Source: Bacteroidales bacterium UBA5515 (GTDB taxonomy: Bacteria; Bacteroidota; Bacteroidia; Bacteroidales; P3). Taken from it: a stretch of DNA of 64,000 nucleotides. Positions 4,230 through 56,872 of this stretch are shown here, piece after piece. Made by a program: the position numbers and the translations under genes. The DNA is taken from positions 2,161 to 66,160 of the forward strand of contig DIOL01000035.1 in the NCBI GenBank assembly GCA_002423895.1. Reading direction: 5' to 3'. How positions within the stretch are numbered: the first letter of the stretch is position 1; each line of letters opens with the position of its first letter. The notes beneath the pieces are model-generated. The model did not search any database and was not told the origin of the DNA. It saw only the letters and a program-made list of their open reading frames with translations.

Positions 4230-4521
4230 TAGTCCTGCTTTTGGATTAGATTAATAAATATTTTTGTTTAATAGATTGATTTTACTCGCTTTGCGAAAGA
4301 GTTCCATAAATGAAAGTCTTATCACTCAGGTTTCAAATACGCTGCAAAGATACAAAAGATTTCTTTAATCAATTATTTTTAAGTAGAAAAATTGTTAAAA
4401 GCTTCATTAAACTCAATCTCTTGCTTATTTCTGATAAATAATAAAGACCTTTAACCAGAAAATCAAAGATTTAAACTAACGAAATGCCGTTTAGAAAAAT
4501 TTTTGCTTGATATAAAACTGA

Positions 4522-4631
4522 TATAATGCCATTAAATGATAAGTATAATGCCATTATACTTCCCATATAATGCCATTAAACCATCAATATAATGGCATTA
4601 TACCGAGAATATAATGGCATTATACTAAAAT
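4522..4631. repeat. Phased palindrome array A: 5 units of TATAATG(C/G)CATTA(TA), period exactly 22 bp
   Basis: Units start at 4522, 4544, 4566, 4588 and 4610. The first three carry a GCC centre and the last two GGC, i.e. the opposite orientation. A degenerate AAACTTCGTTT unit follows in phase at 4633. Confidence 0.9.
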
Positions 4632-6631: not shown

Positions 6632-6741
6632 AAAACAATGCCATTGTTTTGTCAAAACAACCGCATTGTTTTAGGCAAACAATGGCATTGTTTTAGTAAA
6701 ACAACCGCATTGTTTTGAGTAAACAATGGCATTGTTTTTAC
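6632..6741. repeat. Phased palindrome array B: 5 units of AAACAA(TGCC/CCGC/TGGC)ATTGTTTT, period exactly 22 bp with a 44-bp higher-order repeat
   Basis: Units start at 6632, 6654, 6676, 6698 and 6720. Segment 6654-6697 is nearly identical to 6698-6741. Confidence 0.9.
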
Positions 6742-13850: not shown

Positions 13851-14106
13851 ATGAATTTTACTTTACTTTTCACTTCGTGGCTCTCGACCTTCGGTCTTCG
13901 GGTGTCTTGATACAAAAGTAACAAAAAATCAAGACTGTTCACAAATAAACTAAAAATTGAAGCCTTGAACTAAAAATTTATAAACTCGCCTTTGGCTCAA
14001 ACATATAAACTTTCTTTACGTTCAAAACTTCAATTTTCTTTACGCATATTTGTAAAATGTCGGTTGGTTTGTATTTTGGAGTTTATTTGTTGGTTTATGA
14101 TTATGG

Positions 14107-25042: not shown

Positions 25043-25137
25043 CAAATATAAACCATTCATTAGGTTTATTTAGGACTATTTATCCTAAAGTCAATTTCTG
25101 GAAAACAAACTCCAATCCCTAAAAATATATCAAAAAA

Positions 25138-25220
25138 AAGATGCACATCTTTTATAGTGAAAGATGTGCATCTTTTGGTATGAAAGATGTGCATCTTTGG
25201 GGTAAAAAGTCTTCGTTTAA
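25138..25220. repeat. Phased palindrome array C: 3 units of AAGATG(CA/TG)CATCTT, period 23 bp, plus a terminal AAGTCTTCGTTT unit
   Basis: Dyad centres lie at about 25144.5, 25167.5 and 25190.5. Unit 1 is inverted relative to units 2 and 3. Confidence 0.85.
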
Positions 25221-25387: not shown

Positions 25388-25472
25388 TTAACACTATTTA
25401 AAAATATTTCCCTACCTTTGAACATTAATAATAAATATAAGTTATTAATGAATAAGTATAGAATTGAAAATC
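25388..25472 (+). repeat. Promoter/leader module P1 (direct repeat of P2)
   Basis: About 85 bp that aligns to 30060-30146. Shared sequence runs ACTATTT..AAAATATTT..CT..TTTGA...AATAATAAATATAAGTTATTAATGAATAAG..GATTG.AAATC. It includes a TAccTTTG -7 box at 25413-25420. Confidence 0.8.
25413..25420 (+). promoter_or_regulatory. -7 box TAccTTTG of the island cassette operon (inside P1)
   Basis: TAnnTTTG consensus, 138 nt upstream of the ATG at 25558. Confidence 0.5.
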
Positions 25473-25485
25473 TTAATAATAATAT

Positions 25486-25539
25486 AGTGCGTGATTACTT
25501 ATCGACTTTGTCGCTTTGCAAAGCAAAGAAATCCCAAAC
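25486..25539 (+). repeat. Inverted repeat R, left copy
   Basis: AGTGCGTGATTACTTATCGACTTTGTCGCTTTGCAAAGCAAAGAAATCCCAAAC matches the reverse complement of 29785-29840 at roughly 85 percent by eye. The core TTTGCAMAGCAAGAAATC also occurs at 26390-26407. Confidence 0.8.
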
Positions 25540-26380: not shown

Positions 26381-26488
26381 GGTTTACCGTTTGCACAGCA
26401 AGAAATCATAATAATAAAGAAGTACTGGATTATAAATCGCGCACGACAAAAGTATCAACGTTTTTGCAACTGTCTTGAATAACAGCCT

Positions 26489-29225: not shown

Positions 29226-29413
29226 TGTAATTATATTGCTTTAATAATTAATTCTATTGAGATAATATTCTATCCTATTTATTGTTTAACCTATTTTCTA
29301 TTCGGTTTTTTATAAGACTTTATAAGGGAGAAAATTGATATGCTTTTTCAATTTTATAGTAAGTGTGGTTTATAAAAGATAATATTAAATGAGAAAAATT
29401 AATTATCTTTTTG

Positions 29414-29421: not shown

Positions 29422-29529
29422 AAAATAATAATGATATAATGATCACAAATCTAACATCGTATTCTGCCTCTTTCTATTTTTAACCATCTAAAACAAGCTT
29501 AAAATATGATACCTTATGATATTAAATTT

Positions 29530-29760
29530 AGACTTCTTGTTTTTGAAACGAGACTTCTTCTTTTTACTTTTAGACTTCTTGTTTGTAGTCAATAAGTCTG
29601 ACTTTTGTTATCAAAAAGTCTGACTTATTGGGTTGAAAAGTCTGACTTTTTATATTGAAAAGACTGACTTTTTAGGTAAGAAAGACTGACTTTTTGGGTA
29701 TAATAACTTCTTCTAAAAGTATAATAACTTCTTCTAAATGTAAAATTAGGAAGTTATTGT
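29530..29760. repeat. Phased array D: about 10 units in four sub-families, period 21-22 bp
   Basis: AGACTTCTTGTTT at 29530, 29551 and 29572. AAGTCTGACTT at 29594, 29616 and 29638. AAGACTGACTT at 29660 and 29682. ATAATAACTTCTTCTAAA at 29700 and 29721, with an inverted partner GGAAGTTATT at 29749. Confidence 0.85.
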
Positions 29761-29784: not shown

Positions 29785-29840
29785 GTCGTGTGAGATTTCT
29801 TGCTGTGCAAAGCAATAAAGTCGATAATTAATCATGCACT
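29785..29840 (-). repeat. Inverted repeat R, right copy
   Basis: The reverse complement reads AGTGCATGATTAATTATCGACTTTATTGCTTTGCACAGCAAGAAATCTCACACGAC. Confidence 0.8.
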
Positions 29841-30059: not shown

Positions 30060-30146
30060 ATTAATACTATTTTGAAAATATTTACTTATCTTTGACGAGC
30101 AATAATAAATATAAAGTTATTAATGAATAAGCATTGGATTGCAAAT
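30060..30146 (+). repeat. Promoter/leader module P2 (direct repeat of P1), upstream of the MFS-M20 operon
   Basis: See P1. The -7 box TAtcTTTG lies at 30086-30093. Confidence 0.8.
30086..30093 (+). promoter_or_regulatory. -7 box TAtcTTTG of the MFS-M20 operon (inside P2)
   Basis: TAnnTTTG consensus. Confidence 0.5.
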
Positions 30147-43335: not shown

Positions 43336-43349
43336 TATAATACATTATT

Positions 43350-44135
43350 ATGGATATAAAAGAATTGAACGTAAAGACTAAGAATAACAAAAAACTCAAT
43401 CATCCTTGGGAAATGGCAAGGATAGAGGTTGTTTTAGATATATTGAAGCCATTATTAAAGGATAAAACTACTGAGAAAAATGTTTTGGATATTGGTTGTG
43501 GTGATGTTTTCTTTATCAGTGAGTTCTATAAAAGATATCCAAACTTTAAACCTTCGGCTGTAGATATTGCTTTTACAGATGAGATTATTAATAATTTGAA
43601 ACAAGAATACTCTTCTTTCCCAATAGATTACTATAAGGATGTTAAAGATGTTAATTTAACTTGTGGAAATGCTGATTTAATTTTCTTTTTAGATGTAATT
43701 GAGCATATAGAAAACGATATTGACTTCCTAAAAGGCATAAAAGAACTTCCTTATGTTGATAATGATAGCTTATTTGTTATAACTGTTCCTGCTTTTCAAG
43801 GATTGTTTTGCAATCATGACAAATGGCTTGGACATTATAGAAGATATTCCAATAAAATGTTAAGAGAACATATCTCAAAGGCTGGTCTAACAGAAGTTAA
43901 GAGTGGATATTTTTTCTTCTCACTTTTGATTCCTCGTATTATTCAACAGCTTATTGAAAAACCTTCCAATGAAGATAAGGTTGAAGGAATAGGAAACTGG
44001 AATAAAGGAAAGGCTGTAACTAATATTTATAAGTCAATTCTTACTTTTGATTACTATTTCACAAAGGTATTATCAAAAATTGGAATCCGCCTTCCTGGAC
44101 TTTCTACTTATATTATTTGTAAAAAAGCATTATAA
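43350..44135 (+). CDS. Class I SAM-dependent methyltransferase
   Basis: VLDIGCGDV motif I, and the FFLDVIEHI motif typical of the Methyltransf_11/23 families. Confidence 0.75.
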   Translation: MDIKELNVKTKNNKKLNHPWEMARIEVVLDILKPLLKDKTTEKNVLDIGCGDVFFISEFYKRYPNFKPSAVDIAFTDEIINNLKQEYSSFPIDYYKDVKDVNLTCGNADLIFFLDVIEHIENDIDFLKGIKELPYVDNDSLFVITVPAFQGLFCNHDKWLGHYRRYSNKMLREHISKAGLTEVKSGYFFFSLLIPRIIQQLIEKPSNEDKVEGIGNWNKGKAVTNIYKSILTFDYYFTKVLSKIGIRLPGLSTYIICKKAL

Positions 44136-45347
44136 AAGCATAGTCTTGGCTCTCTTTAAGCCTTCAATAAATATATCTATATCTTCTTTTGAGGTGTAAA
44201 CGCCAAAGGAAACTCTTGCTGTACCAACAATATTATAATGTTTCATCACTGTTTGTGCACAATGGTGTCCTGTTCTTATGGCAATTCCCATTTGGTCTAA
44301 AAGTGTTCCTACATCAAAAGGATGAACATCTTTTAAATTAAAAGAAATTGCTCCTGCTTTATGTGGAGTTGTGCCATATATCTTGATATCATCCAAAGAT
44401 AGAAGTTTTTCTGAGGTGTATTGCATTAGAAATTCTTCATGCTTTTCTATAAAATCAAATCCTATCTCATTAATATACTCTATTGCTGCATTAAATCCTA
44501 AAACATCTGCAACAGAAGGAGTACCTGCTTCAAATTTAAAAGGCAATTCGTTGAAAGTTGTTCCCTCAAAAGAAACTTCCTTTATCATTTCTCCACCTCC
44601 ATGATAGGGTGGCATGGCTTCAAGATATTTCTTCTTACCATAAAGAACTCCAATTCCCATTGGTCCATAAAGTTTATGGGCTGAAAAAGCATAAAAATCA
44701 CAATCCAACTCCTCAACGTTTATCTTAAAATGAGGAACTCCCTGTGCTCCATCAATAAGTACAGGAATATCTTTCTTGTGAGCAAGTTCAATAACTTCTT
44801 TAATTGGATTAACAACTCCCAAAGCATTGGAAACATGAGTTAGTGCAACTAATTTAGTCTTTGAATTTAAAAGAGATTTGAATGTTTCCATATCCAATTC
44901 TCCTCTATCCTTAAATGGAAGTACTCTGATTTCGAATTTATATTTGTTTTGAGCCAATTGCCATGGAACAATATTGGAGTGATGTTCCATTTCCGAAACA
45001 ATAATTTCATCTCCTTCCTTAACAAATTCCTGACAGAAAGTTGAGGCAACAAGATTAATGCTTTCAGTTGTTCCTCTTGTAAAGATAATTTCCTGAGAAT
45101 GTTTTGCCCCAATAAAGTTTTGAACATTTTTTCTTGTTTTCTCAAACTCATCGGTTGCTTTCTGGCTAAGCAAATGAACTCCTCTATGAACATTTGCATT
45201 AAGATGAAGATAATAATTGCTCATTGCATCAATCACCTTAAGAGGTTTTTGAGAAGTTGCAGCGTTATCCAAATAAACAAGAGGCTTATTGTAAATCTTT
45301 TCTTCAAGTATTGGAAAATCCTTGCGAATATCGTTTATTGTTTTCAT
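44130..45347 (-). CDS. sufS: Cysteine desulfurase, SufS subfamily
   Basis: YLDNAATSQKP, the SAHKLYGP PLP lysine, and the RTGHHCAQ active-site Cys loop. Confidence 0.9.
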   Translation of the reverse strand: MKTINDIRKDFPILEEKIYNKPLVYLDNAATSQKPLKVIDAMSNYYLHLNANVHRGVHLLSQKATDEFEKTRKNVQNFIGAKHSQEIIFTRGTTESINLVASTFCQEFVKEGDEIIVSEMEHHSNIVPWQLAQNKYKFEIRVLPFKDRGELDMETFKSLLNSKTKLVALTHVSNALGVVNPIKEVIELAHKKDIPVLIDGAQGVPHFKINVEELDCDFYAFSAHKLYGPMGIGVLYGKKKYLEAMPPYHGGGEMIKEVSFEGTTFNELPFKFEAGTPSVADVLGFNAAIEYINEIGFDFIEKHEEFLMQYTSEKLLSLDDIKIYGTTPHKAGAISFNLKDVHPFDVGTLLDQMGIAIRTGHHCAQTVMKHYNIVGTARVSFGVYTSKEDIDIFIEGLKRAKTMLL

Positions 45348-45427
45348 TTCAGGTAAATCATTTATGGTTAATTCTTTTCTTAATCCCTTTATTTATTTGG
45401 AATAATACCTAATCTTTTTCAAATTAG

Positions 45428-45648
45428 ATCAAGATATTTCGTCCTGCAACTTGATTATTTTGTCGTCAGACTTGATTATTTTGTCCTCAGAAGGCTTCCT
45501 TATGCTCTATAAAGCCGCTTTTTAACCAGAAAAAGTGGCTTTTTTGGGTGAAAAAAGCGGCTTTGGAGACCTCCAACTCTTGATTAAAATCCTAAAAGAT
45601 CAAGTCTAAATTCTAAATAATCAAGTTCCAGAACAAAATATCTTGATA
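45428..45648. repeat. Phased array E: about 220-bp imperfect palindrome built from about 10 units of 21-22 bp (MITE-like)
   Basis: The left arm ATCAAGATATTTCGTCC plus 2x CTTGATTATTTTGTC is mirrored on the right by AAATAATCAAG and GAACAAAATATCTTGAT. The centre holds three AAAGC(C/G)GCTTT / AAAAGTGGCTTTT dyads at 45516, 45537 and 45559. The symmetry axis lies at about 45537. Confidence 0.85.
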
Positions 45649-45676: not shown

Positions 45677-48088
45677 TTAATCTACCAAAACAATGCTTGG
45701 AATATCAATCATATTTTCAACATAATGGAATGTCAGTCCTTCCAAATAGTCTTTGGTGATGTCCTCAATGTCTCTTCGGTTTTCTTCTGAAAGAATTATA
45801 TCAGTTATCTTTGAACGTTTGGCTGCAAGTATTTTTTCCTTAATGCCACCAACAGCAGTAACCTTACCTCTAAGAGTTATTTCTCCTGTCATTGCAAAAT
45901 TTGAATTGACTTTACGGTTTGTGAATATGCTAACCATTGCAGTAAACATTGTAACTCCTGCAGATGGACCATCTTTTGGCGTTGCTCCTTCGGGAACATG
46001 AATATGCAGGTTTGTTTCTTCAAATCGTGCAGGGTCAATTCCTAATAAATTAGCATGAGCCTTTAAATATTCGTATGCCAAAGTGGCAGATTCTTTCATC
46101 ACATCACCCAAGTTTCCAGTCAAGGTTAGAGTTCCTTTGCCTTTGCTTGTGCTTGCTTCAATGAAAAGTATTTCACCTCCAACCTGAGTCCAGGCTAATC
46201 CAGTAACAACTCCAACAGTATCTTTTTCCAAATGCATATTGTGATCAGCAATTGGAAGTCCCAAGATTTTTTGAAGGCTTTCAACTTTGATAGTCTTTGA
46301 ATATTTTTCTTCTTTTGCCAATTCCACAGCTCTGGAACGAACTAATTTGGCAATCATTTTCTCCAATTGTCTTACGCCAGACTCACGAGTATATTCATTA
46401 ATCACTTTTGAAAGAACTTCATCGGAGATTGTTATTTGAGATTTCTTAAGTCCATGTTCTTTTATCTGTTTTGGGATAAGATGTCTTTTTGCAATTTCCA
46501 TCTTTTCCTCAAAAATATATCCAGAGATGTTAATTACTTCCATTCTGTCAATAAGTGCAGGCTGAACAGTGTTTAATGTGTTGGCAGTTGCCAGGAACAT
46601 AACCCTTGAAAGGTCGTATTCAACATCAAGATAGTTATCGTGGAAAGCAGTGTTTTGTTCTGGGTCCAAAACTTCAAGCATTGCAGAAGAAGGGTCGCCA
46701 TTAACGGTCATTCCAGCAACCTTATCAATCTCATCCAAAACAAAAACAGGATTAGAAGATTTAGCTTTGTTTATAGACTTAAGAATTCTTCCTGGCATTG
46801 CACCAATATAAGTTTTCCTGTGTCCTCTAATTTCGCTTTCGTCATTCAAACCTCCAAGAGCCATTCTTATATAATTTCTACCAATAGCTTTGGCAATAGA
46901 CTTTCCAAGAGAAGTTTTTCCAACTCCAGGAGGGCCAACCAGGCAAAGGATAGGGGATTTCATATCTCCCTTAAGCTTAAGTACGGCAAGATATTCAATA
47001 ATTCTTTCCTTAACTTTCTCTAAACCATAATGGTCAGCATCCAAAATTTCTTTGGCTTTGTGTAAGTCGAAATTATCTTTTGTATACTGGTTCCATGGTA
47101 GTTCAATCATGAAGTTCAAATAGTTCAATTGAACAGAATAATCAGGAGAACTGCTATGCATTCTTTCTAACTTAACAAGTTCCTTGTTGAACACTTCTTC
47201 AATTTCCTTGCTCCAATGTTTTGTTCTTGCTTTATCTCTTAACTCCAAAACAGCTTGTTCAGTTGGATTACCACCAAGTTCTTCTTGAATGGTTTTAAGT
47301 TGTTGAGTTAAGAAATAATCTCTTTGCTGTTTGTCCAAATCCGTAGATACTTTCTTTTGAATTTGCATCTTTACTTCCTGCATTTGAACTTCTTTAGAAA
47401 GGATAGCCAAAACTTTAGTTGCTCTTTTGGTGAAATCATTCACTTCCAAAAGTTTTTGTTTTTCAGCTAAAGGAATTTCCAAATGGGCAGAAATATAGTT
47501 TAAAAGAAAATATGGATTGTTTATATTTTGAACAGCAAAAGAAACATCTGTTGGCATATTAGGAGTAAGCTTAATTAGCTTTAAATAAACGTCCTTCATT
47601 GCTGCAACAAGTGCATTTGCATTCTTAGGAATATTCTTAGCCAGGTCATTATTCAAGCTAACATTTCCCATTAAGAAAGGTTCACTTTGAGTTAAGCTAT
47701 TAAGATTAAAAATATCCAAACCTTGAATAATTACCATGGTAGTTCCATCTGGCATATTCAGAGTTCTAACAACTCTTGCAAGAGTTCCTGTTTTATATAA
47801 ATCATCAAAATCGGGGTCGTCAACATCATTTTTTTGTGCAACAACACCAATTATCAGTTTTTTCTTATATGCTTCTTTTATTAAGTTGATTGATTTCTCT
47901 CTTCCTGCAGTAATTGGCATAACAACACTCGGAAAGAAAACATTACCTCTTAAAGGTAGTATAGGCAGTTCAGAAGGTAAATCCTTAATTCCAAAATCTA
48001 ATGTGTCATCTTCGTTCAATAAAGGAATGAATTCAGGCTCCCCTGCAAACAACTTTGAGAATTCAATCATTTTTTCGTCATAATTCAT
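45677..48088 (-). CDS. lon: ATP-dependent Lon protease
   Basis: LON N-domain, GPPGVGKTS, and a protease domain with PKDGPSAG. Length 803 aa. Confidence 0.95.
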   Translation of the reverse strand: MNYDEKMIEFSKLFAGEPEFIPLLNEDDTLDFGIKDLPSELPILPLRGNVFFPSVVMPITAGREKSINLIKEAYKKKLIIGVVAQKNDVDDPDFDDLYKTGTLARVVRTLNMPDGTTMVIIQGLDIFNLNSLTQSEPFLMGNVSLNNDLAKNIPKNANALVAAMKDVYLKLIKLTPNMPTDVSFAVQNINNPYFLLNYISAHLEIPLAEKQKLLEVNDFTKRATKVLAILSKEVQMQEVKMQIQKKVSTDLDKQQRDYFLTQQLKTIQEELGGNPTEQAVLELRDKARTKHWSKEIEEVFNKELVKLERMHSSSPDYSVQLNYLNFMIELPWNQYTKDNFDLHKAKEILDADHYGLEKVKERIIEYLAVLKLKGDMKSPILCLVGPPGVGKTSLGKSIAKAIGRNYIRMALGGLNDESEIRGHRKTYIGAMPGRILKSINKAKSSNPVFVLDEIDKVAGMTVNGDPSSAMLEVLDPEQNTAFHDNYLDVEYDLSRVMFLATANTLNTVQPALIDRMEVINISGYIFEEKMEIAKRHLIPKQIKEHGLKKSQITISDEVLSKVINEYTRESGVRQLEKMIAKLVRSRAVELAKEEKYSKTIKVESLQKILGLPIADHNMHLEKDTVGVVTGLAWTQVGGEILFIEASTSKGKGTLTLTGNLGDVMKESATLAYEYLKAHANLLGIDPARFEETNLHIHVPEGATPKDGPSAGVTMFTAMVSIFTNRKVNSNFAMTGEITLRGKVTAVGGIKEKILAAKRSKITDIILSEENRRDIEDITKDYLEGLTFHYVENMIDIPSIVLVD

Positions 48089-49270
48089 CTATCGTAGCTT
48101 CTTGTTTTTTAAAGTTTGATTAAATATGTGTTGGAGAATTTTCTTATCTTCATCACTCATTACCAAACCTCTTCTTTGCATCATTCTTTCGTTCACTTCA
48201 ATTGCCTTTTCTAATTCGTAAAGTTTGAGACCAGTATTGGTGCCTCCCCAAGCAAATGAAGGAATGAAATTTCTTTGGTAACCAGCTCCGTAGATGTTAG
48301 AACTTATTCCAACAACTGTCCCTGTGTTAAACATTACATTTATTCCACACTTGGAATGGTCTCCAAAAATCGTACCACAAAAAACTTGACCGGTAGGAAC
48401 AAAGGTATTTTTCTCAATATCAAATAGTCTTACTTCATCGTAAGTATTCTTAAGATTAGATGCATTTGTGTCAGCTCCAAGATTACACCATTCTCCTATG
48501 ACAGAATGTCCTATAAAACCATCATGAGCTTTGTTGGAATATCCAAAAATGACAACACTATCAAGTTCTCCACCAACTTTGGCATAAGGTCCTATTGTTG
48601 TTCCTCCATAAATCTTAGCATTTAGTTTTAAAACAGCATGTTCTCCCATTGCAAAAGGTCCTCTGACAACAGCACCTTCCATAATTTCGGCATTCTTACC
48701 AATATATATAGGGCCATTCTTAGCATTTAAGCTAGCATATTCAATACTTGCACCTTCTTCAACAAAAATATTTTCAGGATTTATAAGGTTATTGGTTGAA
48801 CTTATGGTTTGAGATTTTCTACCCTTTGTTATTAATTCAAAATCTTCTCTAATAGCTCTATCATTATAAACATAAATATCCCATACATTGTTTAATTTAA
48901 TAAAGTCTTCTTCAATTTCAATTTTTTCAATATCATCTCCTTCAGAAATAAAATCTTCTCTGGTTTTACTCATTGCAATAATATTATCATTGCAAACCAA
49001 AACTTGATTTACTGAAAGGTTTTTAATTGCTTGAACTAATTTAGGAGTAGGGCATACTGAACCATTAATTAGTGTCATTGAGTCAGCAAATATGATTGGA
49101 AATTTATTTGAAAGATATTCTTCTGTCAATGTTGATGTTGTTTCGCCCAAGTATTTTTCCCATTTTTCTCTAATTGTAAGAATTCCAATTCTTATATCAC
49201 AAACAGGTCTTATATAAGTAAATGGTTTCAATGATTTTCTTGCAACATCGTCAAAAAGTATGTAACTCAT
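48089..49270 (-). CDS. GlmU-like sugar-phosphate nucleotidyltransferase-like protein with a left-handed beta-helix
   Basis: The C-terminal half carries hexapeptide repeats (IGKNAEI, IGPYAKVGG, IGEWCNLGA). Its stop abuts the lon start codon. Confidence 0.6.
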   Translation of the reverse strand: MSYILFDDVARKSLKPFTYIRPVCDIRIGILTIREKWEKYLGETTSTLTEEYLSNKFPIIFADSMTLINGSVCPTPKLVQAIKNLSVNQVLVCNDNIIAMSKTREDFISEGDDIEKIEIEEDFIKLNNVWDIYVYNDRAIREDFELITKGRKSQTISSTNNLINPENIFVEEGASIEYASLNAKNGPIYIGKNAEIMEGAVVRGPFAMGEHAVLKLNAKIYGGTTIGPYAKVGGELDSVVIFGYSNKAHDGFIGHSVIGEWCNLGADTNASNLKNTYDEVRLFDIEKNTFVPTGQVFCGTIFGDHSKCGINVMFNTGTVVGISSNIYGAGYQRNFIPSFAWGGTNTGLKLYELEKAIEVNERMMQRRGLVMSDEDKKILQHIFNQTLKNKKLR

Positions 49271-52927: not shown

Positions 52928-53071
52928 AAAGATAGGCTTATAGCATCAAAAAGATAAGATCTTTTGACAAAATAACGGCGTCTTTGACTATTAAAGATCT
53001 CGTTATTTGATTAAAAGATGTCGTTATTTATCCTCAAGATGTTTTTATTTGTGGTAAAGATATAGTAATTT
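52928..53071. repeat. Phased array F: about 7 units related to AAAGATNNCGTTATTT, period 21-22 bp
   Basis: Units start at 52928, 52950, 52970 (inverted: AAATAACGGCGTCTTT), 52993, 53014, 53035 and 53056. Confidence 0.75.
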
Positions 53072-53735
53072 GCACAAATAGAATTGAAATTAACTCCATT
53101 TCTAAAAAAGATTTATTATTAATATTTAATTTCTAAAATCAATAAAGAAGAACAATCTGCTTTTTCTTAAAAAATCTTATTTTAATACTATTTGTGATTG
53201 AAAAGATTCACAAAATGGAAAATTAATTTAATATATTATTAGAGGTAAAAAAACAAGAATATTTCCAATTAAAATTTAAAAATATTTCCAAAAAATTTGT
53301 TTTATAAAAATAAAGATATACATTTGCAACTTGAACTTGAATTTTAATAATAATGATAAGATTATCTAATGTATTATTTTTTAACCCAGCTTATAATAAA
53401 AGATTATTAGCTGTATATTCAAGTTTAATTATTTTAATTTTGACATATCCTATTGTTAATAAATACCTTTATATTAAAATTAATTTCTATTTAAGTATGT
53501 ATGGTATTTTCTATTTGGGGAAGAACAACTTCGTAAAATAAGGAACTTTGGTTGCTTAACTACTCCCAATCTCTTGCCAAAGTTCCATAAATAATAAGCC
53601 CAAGAAGCAAAAGAGAAGCTCAATTTATAATACAGAAATAAAGATATTCACTTTCTACAATTAACTTAACCTTTTCAAAGAATATCTTTAGTTATAAATC
53701 CCCTAAGAGTATTTATTAATTAAAAATTTATAGAG

Positions 53736-56580: not shown

Positions 56581-56683
56581 TATGGTACGACCATAATGCA
56601 ATTATGGTCGTACCATAACTTAGTTATCATGCCACCATAAACTCATTATGGTACGACCATAACTAAATTATCATGACACCATA
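56581..56683. repeat. Phased palindrome array G: 5 units of TATGGTACGACCATA / TATCATGCCACCATA, period exactly 22 bp with a 44-bp higher-order repeat
   Basis: Dyad centres lie at 56588, 56610, 56632, 56654 and 56676. The ACG/CGT centre flips between units. Confidence 0.9.
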
Positions 56684-56872
56684 CAGAATTTATTCCTTGT
56701 TTAAATAAATTTTTACTTGATTTCAGTAAATTTATTCATGATATAAATAAATTCTTATCTAAGATAAATTTACTTTTTATTGGATTTAAATAGGCGTAAT
56801 TAGTCTCTCAAATGCTTATTAAAGCAAATGTTTTTTATTTCTATAAGTAGAAGGAGAAATAGGGGGATATTA

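Follow-up and report, generated by a model that had tools for sequence, protein, structure and literature searches.

REPs fall into one or a few sequence families, reach tens to hundreds of copies and are linked to the RAYT transposase, and the roles proposed for REP, BIME and REPIN elements comprise mRNA-end protection, termination and protein binding. BOX elements of pneumococci (boxA-boxB(n)-boxC) number more than 100 copies per genome, have middle units of 45 bp and are not phased at 21-22 bp throughout. Plasmid iterons and parC-type sites repeat with a period of 11 or 22 bp, are bound cooperatively, and lie on plasmids beside a rep or par gene. Among known elements, the one most akin to that described here is BrickBuilt of Porphyromonas gingivalis, which is present in 19 copies per genome and built from one unit consensus (Klein et al., 2015; PMC4596501). 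The same bacterium also has tandem repeats of 22, 23 and 41 nt (PMC4596501), so that a period near two helical turns may characterise the Bacteroidales as an order. Finally, three sources (PMC8604942, PMC7202029, PMC8794818) describe how template switching between imperfect inverted repeats homogenises their arms and inverts the spacers between them.

The element in question is a single-locus variant of intergenic palindromic minisatellites, and fills nearly the whole spacer between lon and sufS in the window, by which we mean the entire 64-kb stretch of DNA analysed (G+C ~30%). In an ungapped scan of every axis in the window, positions 45428-45647 form a 220-bp dyad centred on 45537.5, in which complementarity holds for 71 of 110 position pairs. 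This score lies ~7.5 sd over the window-wide mean of 31.6 (sd 5.2) and ranks second-highest within the 64 kb, bearing out the dyad symmetry reported in a first-pass annotation of the locus. The arm sequences quoted in that annotation agree exactly with the window sequence, as does the start of the element; its end was placed one base too far, at 45648. A repeat finder returns arms of 54 nt at 45428-45481 and 45594-45647 that are 81% complementary and separated by a gap of 112 nt, the arm identity being 25/28, 44/54 and 48/75 over the outer 28, 54 and 75 nt, respectively. The sequence AAAAGTGGCTTTT at 45531-45543 is centred on the dyad axis, where the annotation had set its central dyad.

Two kinds of unit, each 21-22 bp long, make up this structure: CTTGAT-bearing units in the mirrored arms, and near-palindromes of A-tract, GC-core and T-tract in the centre (Table 1). 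Autocorrelation is highest at lag 21 (52% identity, z 8.3) and is echoed at lags 42-43 and 63-64, and the CTTGAT/ATCAAG hexamers follow one another at start-to-start spacings of 22, 21, 108, 20, 21, and 22 bp, such that the phasing of sub-units claimed at first reading is real. The right arm mirrors the left and has one additional inner hexamer. Three central cores start at 45511, 45532, and 45554, and the A and T tracts around them have centres ~11 bp apart, that is, in helical phase.

Table 1. Coordinates of the element, its parts and the adjoining genes (window numbering; a dot marks features without a strand).
Feature	Coordinates	Strand	Remarks
Whole dyad-symmetric repeat element	45428..45647	.	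~10 units of 21-22 bp; varied forms in alleles L007, L013, L255
Left (sufS-proximal) arm	45428..45489	+	Outward-facing ATCAAG at 45428-45433, then two direct 21-bp units ACTTGATTATTTTGTCSTCAG, with CTTGAT at 45450 and 45471
Inner inverted-repeat half GAAGGCTTCC	45490..45499	.	Pairs with 45565-45574; read from the sequence
Central block, three near-palindromic units	45511..45564	.	AAAGCCGCTTTTT at 45511-45523; AAAAAGTGGCTTTTTT at 45530-45545; AAAAAAGCGGCTTT at 45551-45564
Inner inverted-repeat half GGAGACCTCC	45565..45574	.	Partner of 45490-45499
Right (lon-proximal) arm	45579..45647	-	CTTGAT at 45579, ATCAAG at 45599 and 45620, CTTGAT at 45642
Small flanking palindrome CTAATCTTTTTCAAATTAG	45409..45427	.	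Adjoins the left end of the element
sufS, class-V aminotransferase/SufS cysteine desulfurase	44130..45347	-	Pfam; start codon 80 nt from the element
lon, LonA protease	45677..48088	-	Pfam; stop codon 29 nt from the element
NTP_transf_4 gene	48089-49270	Co-oriented with lon and sufS	Abuts lon upstream

The reported position between sufS and lon is borne out by Pfam, which identifies the neighbourhood genes as lon, sufS, a methyltransferase gene and an NTP-transferase gene. Genes around the element and around the other arrays in the window are ordinary chromosomal ones, encoding a radical-SAM maturase, a CAAX protease, Na+/H+ exchangers, an MFS transporter and a DUF349 protein among them, and the window holds neither tRNA genes nor Rfam families at gathering score. 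SufS homologues, together with an identical neighbouring protein that NCBI records as belonging to a TPA MAG, assign the window to an uncultured member of the Bacteroidales. An assembly artefact is ruled out, because six independent Logan contigs from different samples reproduce the element and are 99.99-100% identical over the region.

Set against the described systems, the element resembles BrickBuilt in belonging to the Bacteroidales, in being strictly intergenic and built of tandem units that are imperfect and span roughly two helical turns (23 nt in BrickBuilt), in differing in unit number between strains, in its predicted long stem-loops, and in lacking an Rfam match. Unlike BrickBuilt it is single-copy and made of its own units, of the CTTGAT type and the AAAGCSGCTTTT type with a period of 21-22 bp as against the 23-nt unit; its arms are themselves repeats; and it has neither IS-like ends nor a target duplication. 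None of the other hallmarks of BrickBuilt was seen in the element, whether the shared 23-nt consensus, the leader, the tail, or the IS5-like ends GAGACCTTTGCA / TGCAAAGGTCTC. Kinship to those IS5-type ends was considered and rejected, the only common piece being the 6-mer GAGACC in the wrong orientation. With the REP, BIME and REPIN elements of proteobacteria (PMC3733652, PMC3116915) it shares short extragenic palindromes that are clustered, alternate in orientation and often lie between co-oriented genes, but its sequence is unique, every array in the window is private in sequence, and in place of a high-copy palindrome family the central unit was found at one locus in the window. Its modular layout recalls the pneumococcal BOX, where two partly complementary end modules enclose a copy-variable middle module. 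The likeness to plasmid iterons and parC-type centromeres lies in repeats disposed on one helical face, which the lag-21 periodicity demonstrates here, and in the two sets around a centre; no rep or par gene adjoins the element, however, and its context is one of chromosomal housekeeping genes, with no match in the plasmid collection.

Within the window the element has no second copy. With blastn-short, neither the arms, nor the centre, nor the element as a whole gave a match elsewhere of more than 13 nt, the unit 16-mer at up to three mismatches matched at chance level only, and the central unit did not occur beyond its own locus. An exact-match scan of 185,579 GTDB species genomes (one genome per species) with a degenerate 28-mer of the terminal arm returned one match, in the orthologous sufS-lon spacer of CTSoil_023 (JAFNAR010000024.1), a MAG with 95.5% identity to the window in this region. 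BLAST against plasmid and phage collections, also at low stringency, found no match to the element. Carriage is restricted to alleles of at least 91% nucleotide identity, a narrow Bacteroidales lineage. Relatives whose SufS is 79-82% identical (~80% at the nucleotide level) have lon and sufS adjacent and co-oriented with no element between them, so that the element is lineage-specific. Their element-less spacers measure 115, 127 or 251 bp, one of them holding a small membrane-protein-like ORF, and are not alignable to the flanks of the element, being too diverged to define an empty site.

The history of the element is recorded in its alleles, of which four were compared: that of the window, and L007, L013, and L255, whose surrounding DNA is 91-95% identical to the window at the nucleotide level. 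Three central units are present in the window allele versus four in each of the others, the indel being exactly one unit of 22-23 bp. The 8-10 nt between the two outermost hexamers occur in two forms: the window allele and L007 carry one form on both arms (25/28), L255 carries the other form on both arms (28/28), and L013 is a hybrid with one form per arm (21/28). RNAalifold registers six pairs in which both partners have changed and pairing is retained. Five of these are contiguous, forming a single block in the outer unit, the sixth belongs to the central hairpin, and L013 represents the broken intermediate for the five-pair block. Elsewhere in the element, the two tandem inner units of L255 carry an identical pair of substitutions, a concerted change; in L013 the first central unit and its linker, read as their reverse complement, reproduce the last linker and unit, and the inner half at 45490-45499 reads GAAGGTCTCC, giving 9/10 complementarity in that allele. 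As a test for selection at the RNA level, G.U mismatches were counted against A.C mismatches on the sense strand, yielding 6 vs 4, 7 vs 6, 6 vs 3 and 8 vs 5 in the four alleles, and no G.U strand bias was found on either strand. Since G.U is not in excess over A.C on either strand, the symmetry appears to belong to the DNA itself rather than to a single transcript.

These differences carry the signatures of unit slippage and of arm-to-arm copying, from which we infer the conversion mechanism. Whole units would be gained or lost by slippage or unequal exchange, and intramolecular template switching across the palindrome would copy blocks between the arms. Copying of this kind would keep restoring the dyad, making its symmetry largely a mutational property at the DNA level, and template switching would also account for a C/G toggling seen in a neighbouring array (see below). 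Comparison with template-switch quasipalindromes (PMC8604942, PMC7202029, PMC8794818) is apt on two counts: arm homogenisation resembles the two-step block replacement of the outer unit, and spacer inversion resembles the toggling of palindrome centres in the neighbouring array. Template switching, however, is a way in which sequences mutate rather than a type of element, and its operation here is deduced from sequence.

Across the four alleles, 1 of 42 hexamer columns is variable, compared with 38 of 178 elsewhere in the element (Fisher p 0.003, a value that overstates the difference in that the variable columns stem from few block events); the one mutated hexamer is CTTGTT in L255. The hexamers, the cores and the spacing of two helical turns thus persist while the DNA between them is replaced, and because these three remain fixed, the element may be regarded as a putative array of binding sites phased on one face of the helix. 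We therefore lean, with confidence somewhat above even, towards a non-mobile, locus-specific and self-homogenising quasi-palindromic minisatellite that probably serves as a phased protein-binding or architectural spacer. Such a minisatellite would have arisen between lon and sufS in a single narrow lineage of the Bacteroidales, and its putative protein-binding sites would be phased on one helix face around an intrinsically bent centre, where the pattern is as expected for phased A-tract bending. Protein binding and an effect on transcription are both inferred from this arrangement; the most likely effect would be to separate, or insulate, the initiation of sufS from read-through transcription of lon. 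Conservation of the cores could derive from conversion among units, rather than from selection. No binding protein was found among the genes examined beside the element, which are housekeeping genes. In and beside the element, the Bacteroidetes promoter motif TAnnTTTG has only off-consensus or non-conserved matches, and none inside it on the sufS strand; one of them, a weak -7-like TAATTTG on the sufS strand within the CTAATCTTTTTCAAATTAG palindrome, is not conserved in L013. For this reason we make no claim of a promoter.

The other tandem arrays of the window place the element in a wider setting. When arrays of period 12-60 are collected and overlaps collapsed, 13 of 15 have a period of 21-23 bp, compared with only about one-fifth of the arrays in a rough background of 1.9 Mb of unrelated contigs, a sample that is itself biased towards 21-bp repeats. 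This likeness does not extend to sequence. The 8-mers common to different window arrays are at or near the shuffle expectation, and an all-against-all BLAST of spacers ties the element to one other spacer by a 13-nt match only, which together rule out a sequence family among these arrays. They share period and build but not sequence, so that the term family holds only in the architectural sense; the first-pass suggestion that the element might be the minimal or empty form of a family is accordingly not supported, as there is no sequence family of which it could be an empty member. In the other arrays, the unit consists of an invariant palindrome of 14-17 bp with a variable centre of 1-3 bp and a saturated linker of 5-7 bp, repeated at exactly 22 or 23 bp. 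Arrays A and B were followed into relatives of 87-95% nucleotide identity, where the cores are unchanged and the flanks are 74-81% identical; the unit number across strains is 5, 5 and 4 in one and 5, 1 and 4 in the other, linkers have changed their order, and the middle base of the same palindrome switches between C and G. In a relative of 72% protein identity, the corresponding position is occupied by a different 21-bp array. That so many distinct cores occur within one genome speaks against each array having a regulator of its own.

Tentatively, and with low probability, the element could be one member of a genome-wide and as yet undescribed Bacteroidales class of intergenic arrays, each composed of private palindromes or hexamers at a strict spacing of two helical turns. 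The reader or generator of such a class might be a chromosomal protein that recognises shape or structure, or a process of recombination or replication with a ruler of ~22 bp, and the arrays might serve as tunable spacers of variable copy number by which the architecture of the local DNA and the insulation of genes are set.

The same arrays bear on the view that no function exists at all, which we judge unlikely. Under that explanation, a seed palindrome in an AT-rich spacer would have been amplified by slippage, homogenised by template switching and tolerated in a spacer that would be dispensable, and the conservation of its cores would reflect concerted evolution only. The youth and lineage restriction of the element are consistent with such an origin, as are the instability of unit number here and in the other arrays (1 to 5 units), the failure to find an associated gene, and the capacity of block conversions to generate symmetry without selection. 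It accounts poorly, however, for the convergence of unrelated unit sequences on the 21-23-bp period in nearly all arrays of the window, and for hexamers which outlast the replacement of the spacers between them. Linkers are saturated where cores are invariant, both within arrays and across strains at 87% identity, and simple duplication followed by drift fails to predict this combination.

A role at the level of RNA is similarly doubtful. In this explanation, a long imperfect hairpin in the lon 3' UTR or between the lon and sufS cistrons would uncouple the expression of the two genes in the manner of REP or BIME elements, through a block to 3' exonucleases, transcription termination or cleavage by RNase III. 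The potential for a large hairpin or cruciform, proposed at first reading, is real as computed: RNA of the minus strand, which is the sense strand, is predicted to fold at -94.2 kcal/mol (z -10.3), and in all three alleles folded (window, L007, and L013) the sense fold is ~10 kcal/mol more stable than the antisense. Co-transcription of lon and sufS is plausible because the genes are co-oriented, as is the NTP_transf_4 gene, and the spacers of relatives are as short as 115-127 bp. Further, the symmetry has been restored after disruption, and the central units resemble hairpins of A-tract, GC-stem and T-tract. By eye, the plus strand at 45514-45545 offers a 10-bp stem (GCCGCTTTTT/AAAAAGTGGC), a 6-nt loop and a T6 tail, with only a weaker version on the lon-sense strand. 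A consensus scan of the element and its borders gave no canonical terminator. At gathering thresholds Rfam returns no match for the element, and the best matches below threshold are to plant miRNA precursors and to BTnc231 (24.6 bits, against a threshold of 80.4), generic long-hairpin matches that score far under the gathering level. Selection on a transcript is also difficult to reconcile with the lack of G.U excess on the sense strand, with the ~15-17 non-wobble mismatches that persist in each allele, and with the tolerance of a broken outer block in L013. Moreover, arrays of the same class at 6632-6741 and 29520-29760 lie between divergent genes, where there is no 3' end.

Mobility, the first-pass interpretation, fares much worse. 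The annotation had described the element as MITE-like, and a true MITE here would be a non-autonomous, BrickBuilt-like transposon lodged between lon and sufS and mobilised in trans by a transposase recognising its CTTGAT-bearing ends. We consider this very unlikely. Imperfect terminal inverted repeats (54 nt at 81%) are present, the element occurs in one lineage and is missing from the same spacer in relatives, and each end contains sub-terminal direct repeats, as do Tn7- or Mu-type ends. Within the Bacteroidales there is also the precedent of a MITE that carries a 23-nt minisatellite (PMC4596501). Yet the element is single-copy in the window, its one match among the GTDB species genomes is orthologous, and it has no plasmid or phage match. 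The check for a target-site duplication, which the annotation had recommended, likewise came out negative: the flanks (...AAATTAG| and |AAAAAGT...) are not direct repeats, and the bases at the left junction differ by allele (TTAG, TTAA, TTTT, or TTAT). The ends are unlike the IS5-type ends reported for BrickBuilt, the whole body consists of phased units that vary in place, and no transposase was found among the genes examined around the element and the other arrays. Terminal inverted repeats notwithstanding, copy number and the junctions, as seen in the window and in the exact-match GTDB scan, do not support classification as a MITE. Two observations had been named in advance as pointing to a locus-specific palindrome instead, of which one was made, namely the lack of other copies, while the other was not, as conservation of the spacer does not extend to the wider clade. 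Diverged copies may possibly exist in parts of the genome beyond the 64-kb window, and the MITE interpretation survives only if they do.

An inverton, with the arms as recombinase sites and sufS turned on or off by inversion of the 112-bp centre between them, is extremely improbable despite the inverted repeats around a short segment upstream of a gene and the frequency of invertons in Bacteroidales, given that nine independent assemblies (four alleles) all carry the asymmetric centre spacers in one orientation, that the centre is itself near-palindromic and its flip would alter little, and that there is no recombinase gene nearby and no clear promoter inside the element.

Three narrower leads were also pursued and set aside. 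Three occurrences of CTTGATT at 21-22 bp, scanned for in metagenome and viral contigs, do not define a family, in that most of the matches listed are coding 7-residue repeats or unrelated satellites. Also among the matches listed are AT-rich, Bacteroidota-like intergenic arrays (L063, L069, L119, L121, L033, L092, L105 and L129), and no recurrent neighbouring gene of the CTTGATT-type intergenic arrays was found among those matches. CTTGATT arrays do lie directly 3' of sufS in two relatives (L010 and L012). An operator linked to sufS is not established, as CTTGAT-type units are found beside two other arrays in the window and the hexamer is ~3-fold enriched in spacers. LytTR-type regulators bind direct repeats with a 21-22-bp period; the neighbouring ORFs encode neither response-regulator nor LytTR domains, and the motif is unlike known LytTR boxes.

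To return to the phased protein-binding or architectural spacer that we favour, the locus is of interest chiefly because it records how a palindrome regains its symmetry, and because of the genome-wide preference for periods of 21-23 bp. With two symmetric states and one hybrid in four alleles, it is a clean natural case of a palindrome that has repeatedly regained its symmetry, and would be useful for studying mutagenesis by template switching in organisms other than the usual models. Should a protein read the phased arrays, they would constitute a hitherto overlooked level at which chromosomes are organised or genes insulated in the Bacteroidales, one that evolves fast and by whole-unit steps, in an order that dominates gut and anaerobic-digester microbiomes. 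More practically, arrays of this kind could serve as markers for strain typing. They also break short-read assemblies, and one of the six Logan contigs ends inside the element.

Besides the lon-sufS element, the window contains at least ten other tandem arrays in intergenic DNA, nearly all of which have a period of 21-23 bp (see table). Each of these arrays has a private unit that combines a short invariant palindrome with a variable centre and a saturated linker, and several are composite; the array at 29520-29760, for example, comprises three in-phase sub-arrays. Comparison of array 4521-4630 with contigs of two relatives (L252:5703-5808 and L253:1753-1836) revealed that the central base of its palindrome, TATAATG[C/G]CATTATA, switches between C and G in corresponding units of different strains, and that linker order is permuted. 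The toggling and permutation fit a model in which template switching inverts spacers and units are gained and lost. Copy number also differs in array 6632-6741 (unit AAACAATGSCATTGTTT), with five units in the window versus one in the 93%-identity relative (L252:2290-2320), and four in a relative at 87% identity. L252 (here at 93-95% identity) further carries a 1.4-kb insertion between a CAAX-protease gene and the adjoining array (L252:4222-5663), containing two ORFs of 218 and 207 aa, for which a solid Pfam match was not found.

The hexamers characteristic of the lon-sufS element, CTTGAT/ATCAAG, occur at a density of 2.4 per kb in spacers versus 0.78 per kb in coding DNA, and an inverted repeat, GTCTTGAT-N16-ATCAAGAC, lies in a different spacer. 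In two relatives that lack the element, a 21-bp CTTGATT-type array sits directly 3' of sufS (L010:5217-5307 and L012:1455-1519); as CTTGAT-type units recur in the clade, this link to sufS may be due to chance. In another relative (SufS 79% identical), the place of the repeat element between lon and sufS is taken by a 75-aa hydrophobic ORF (L008:3763-3990). In the window, sufS is overlapped at its 3' end by a methyltransferase gene (43342-44129); this gene is absent from L255, the allele of the element at 91% nucleotide identity (L255:2281-2282).

A 41-bp motif, AGTGCRTGATTANTTATCGACTTT..GCTTTGCAMAGCAA, is present as two copies in inverted orientation, separated by approximately 4.3 kb, along with a partial third copy. 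Two genes have a 31-bp AT-rich motif upstream. Both motifs may constitute common leaders or regulatory sites. Finally, the short-read Logan contig L005 terminates inside the lon-sufS element, at window position 45584, showing that such arrays fragment assemblies.

Repeat features of the window outside the lon-sufS element
Feature	Window position	Strand
Tandem array	4521-4630	
Tandem array	6632-6741	
Tandem array	13997-14044	
Tandem array	25137-25205	
Tandem array	29228-29267	
Tandem array	29520-29760	
Tandem array	52960-53075	
Tandem array	53248-53291	
Tandem array	56581-56683	
Tandem array	56687-56753	
Inverted repeat	13904-13935	
41-bp motif	25486-25526	+
41-bp motif	29800-29840	-
41-bp motif, partial	26390-26407	
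31-bp motif	25427-25456	
31-bp motif	30101-30131
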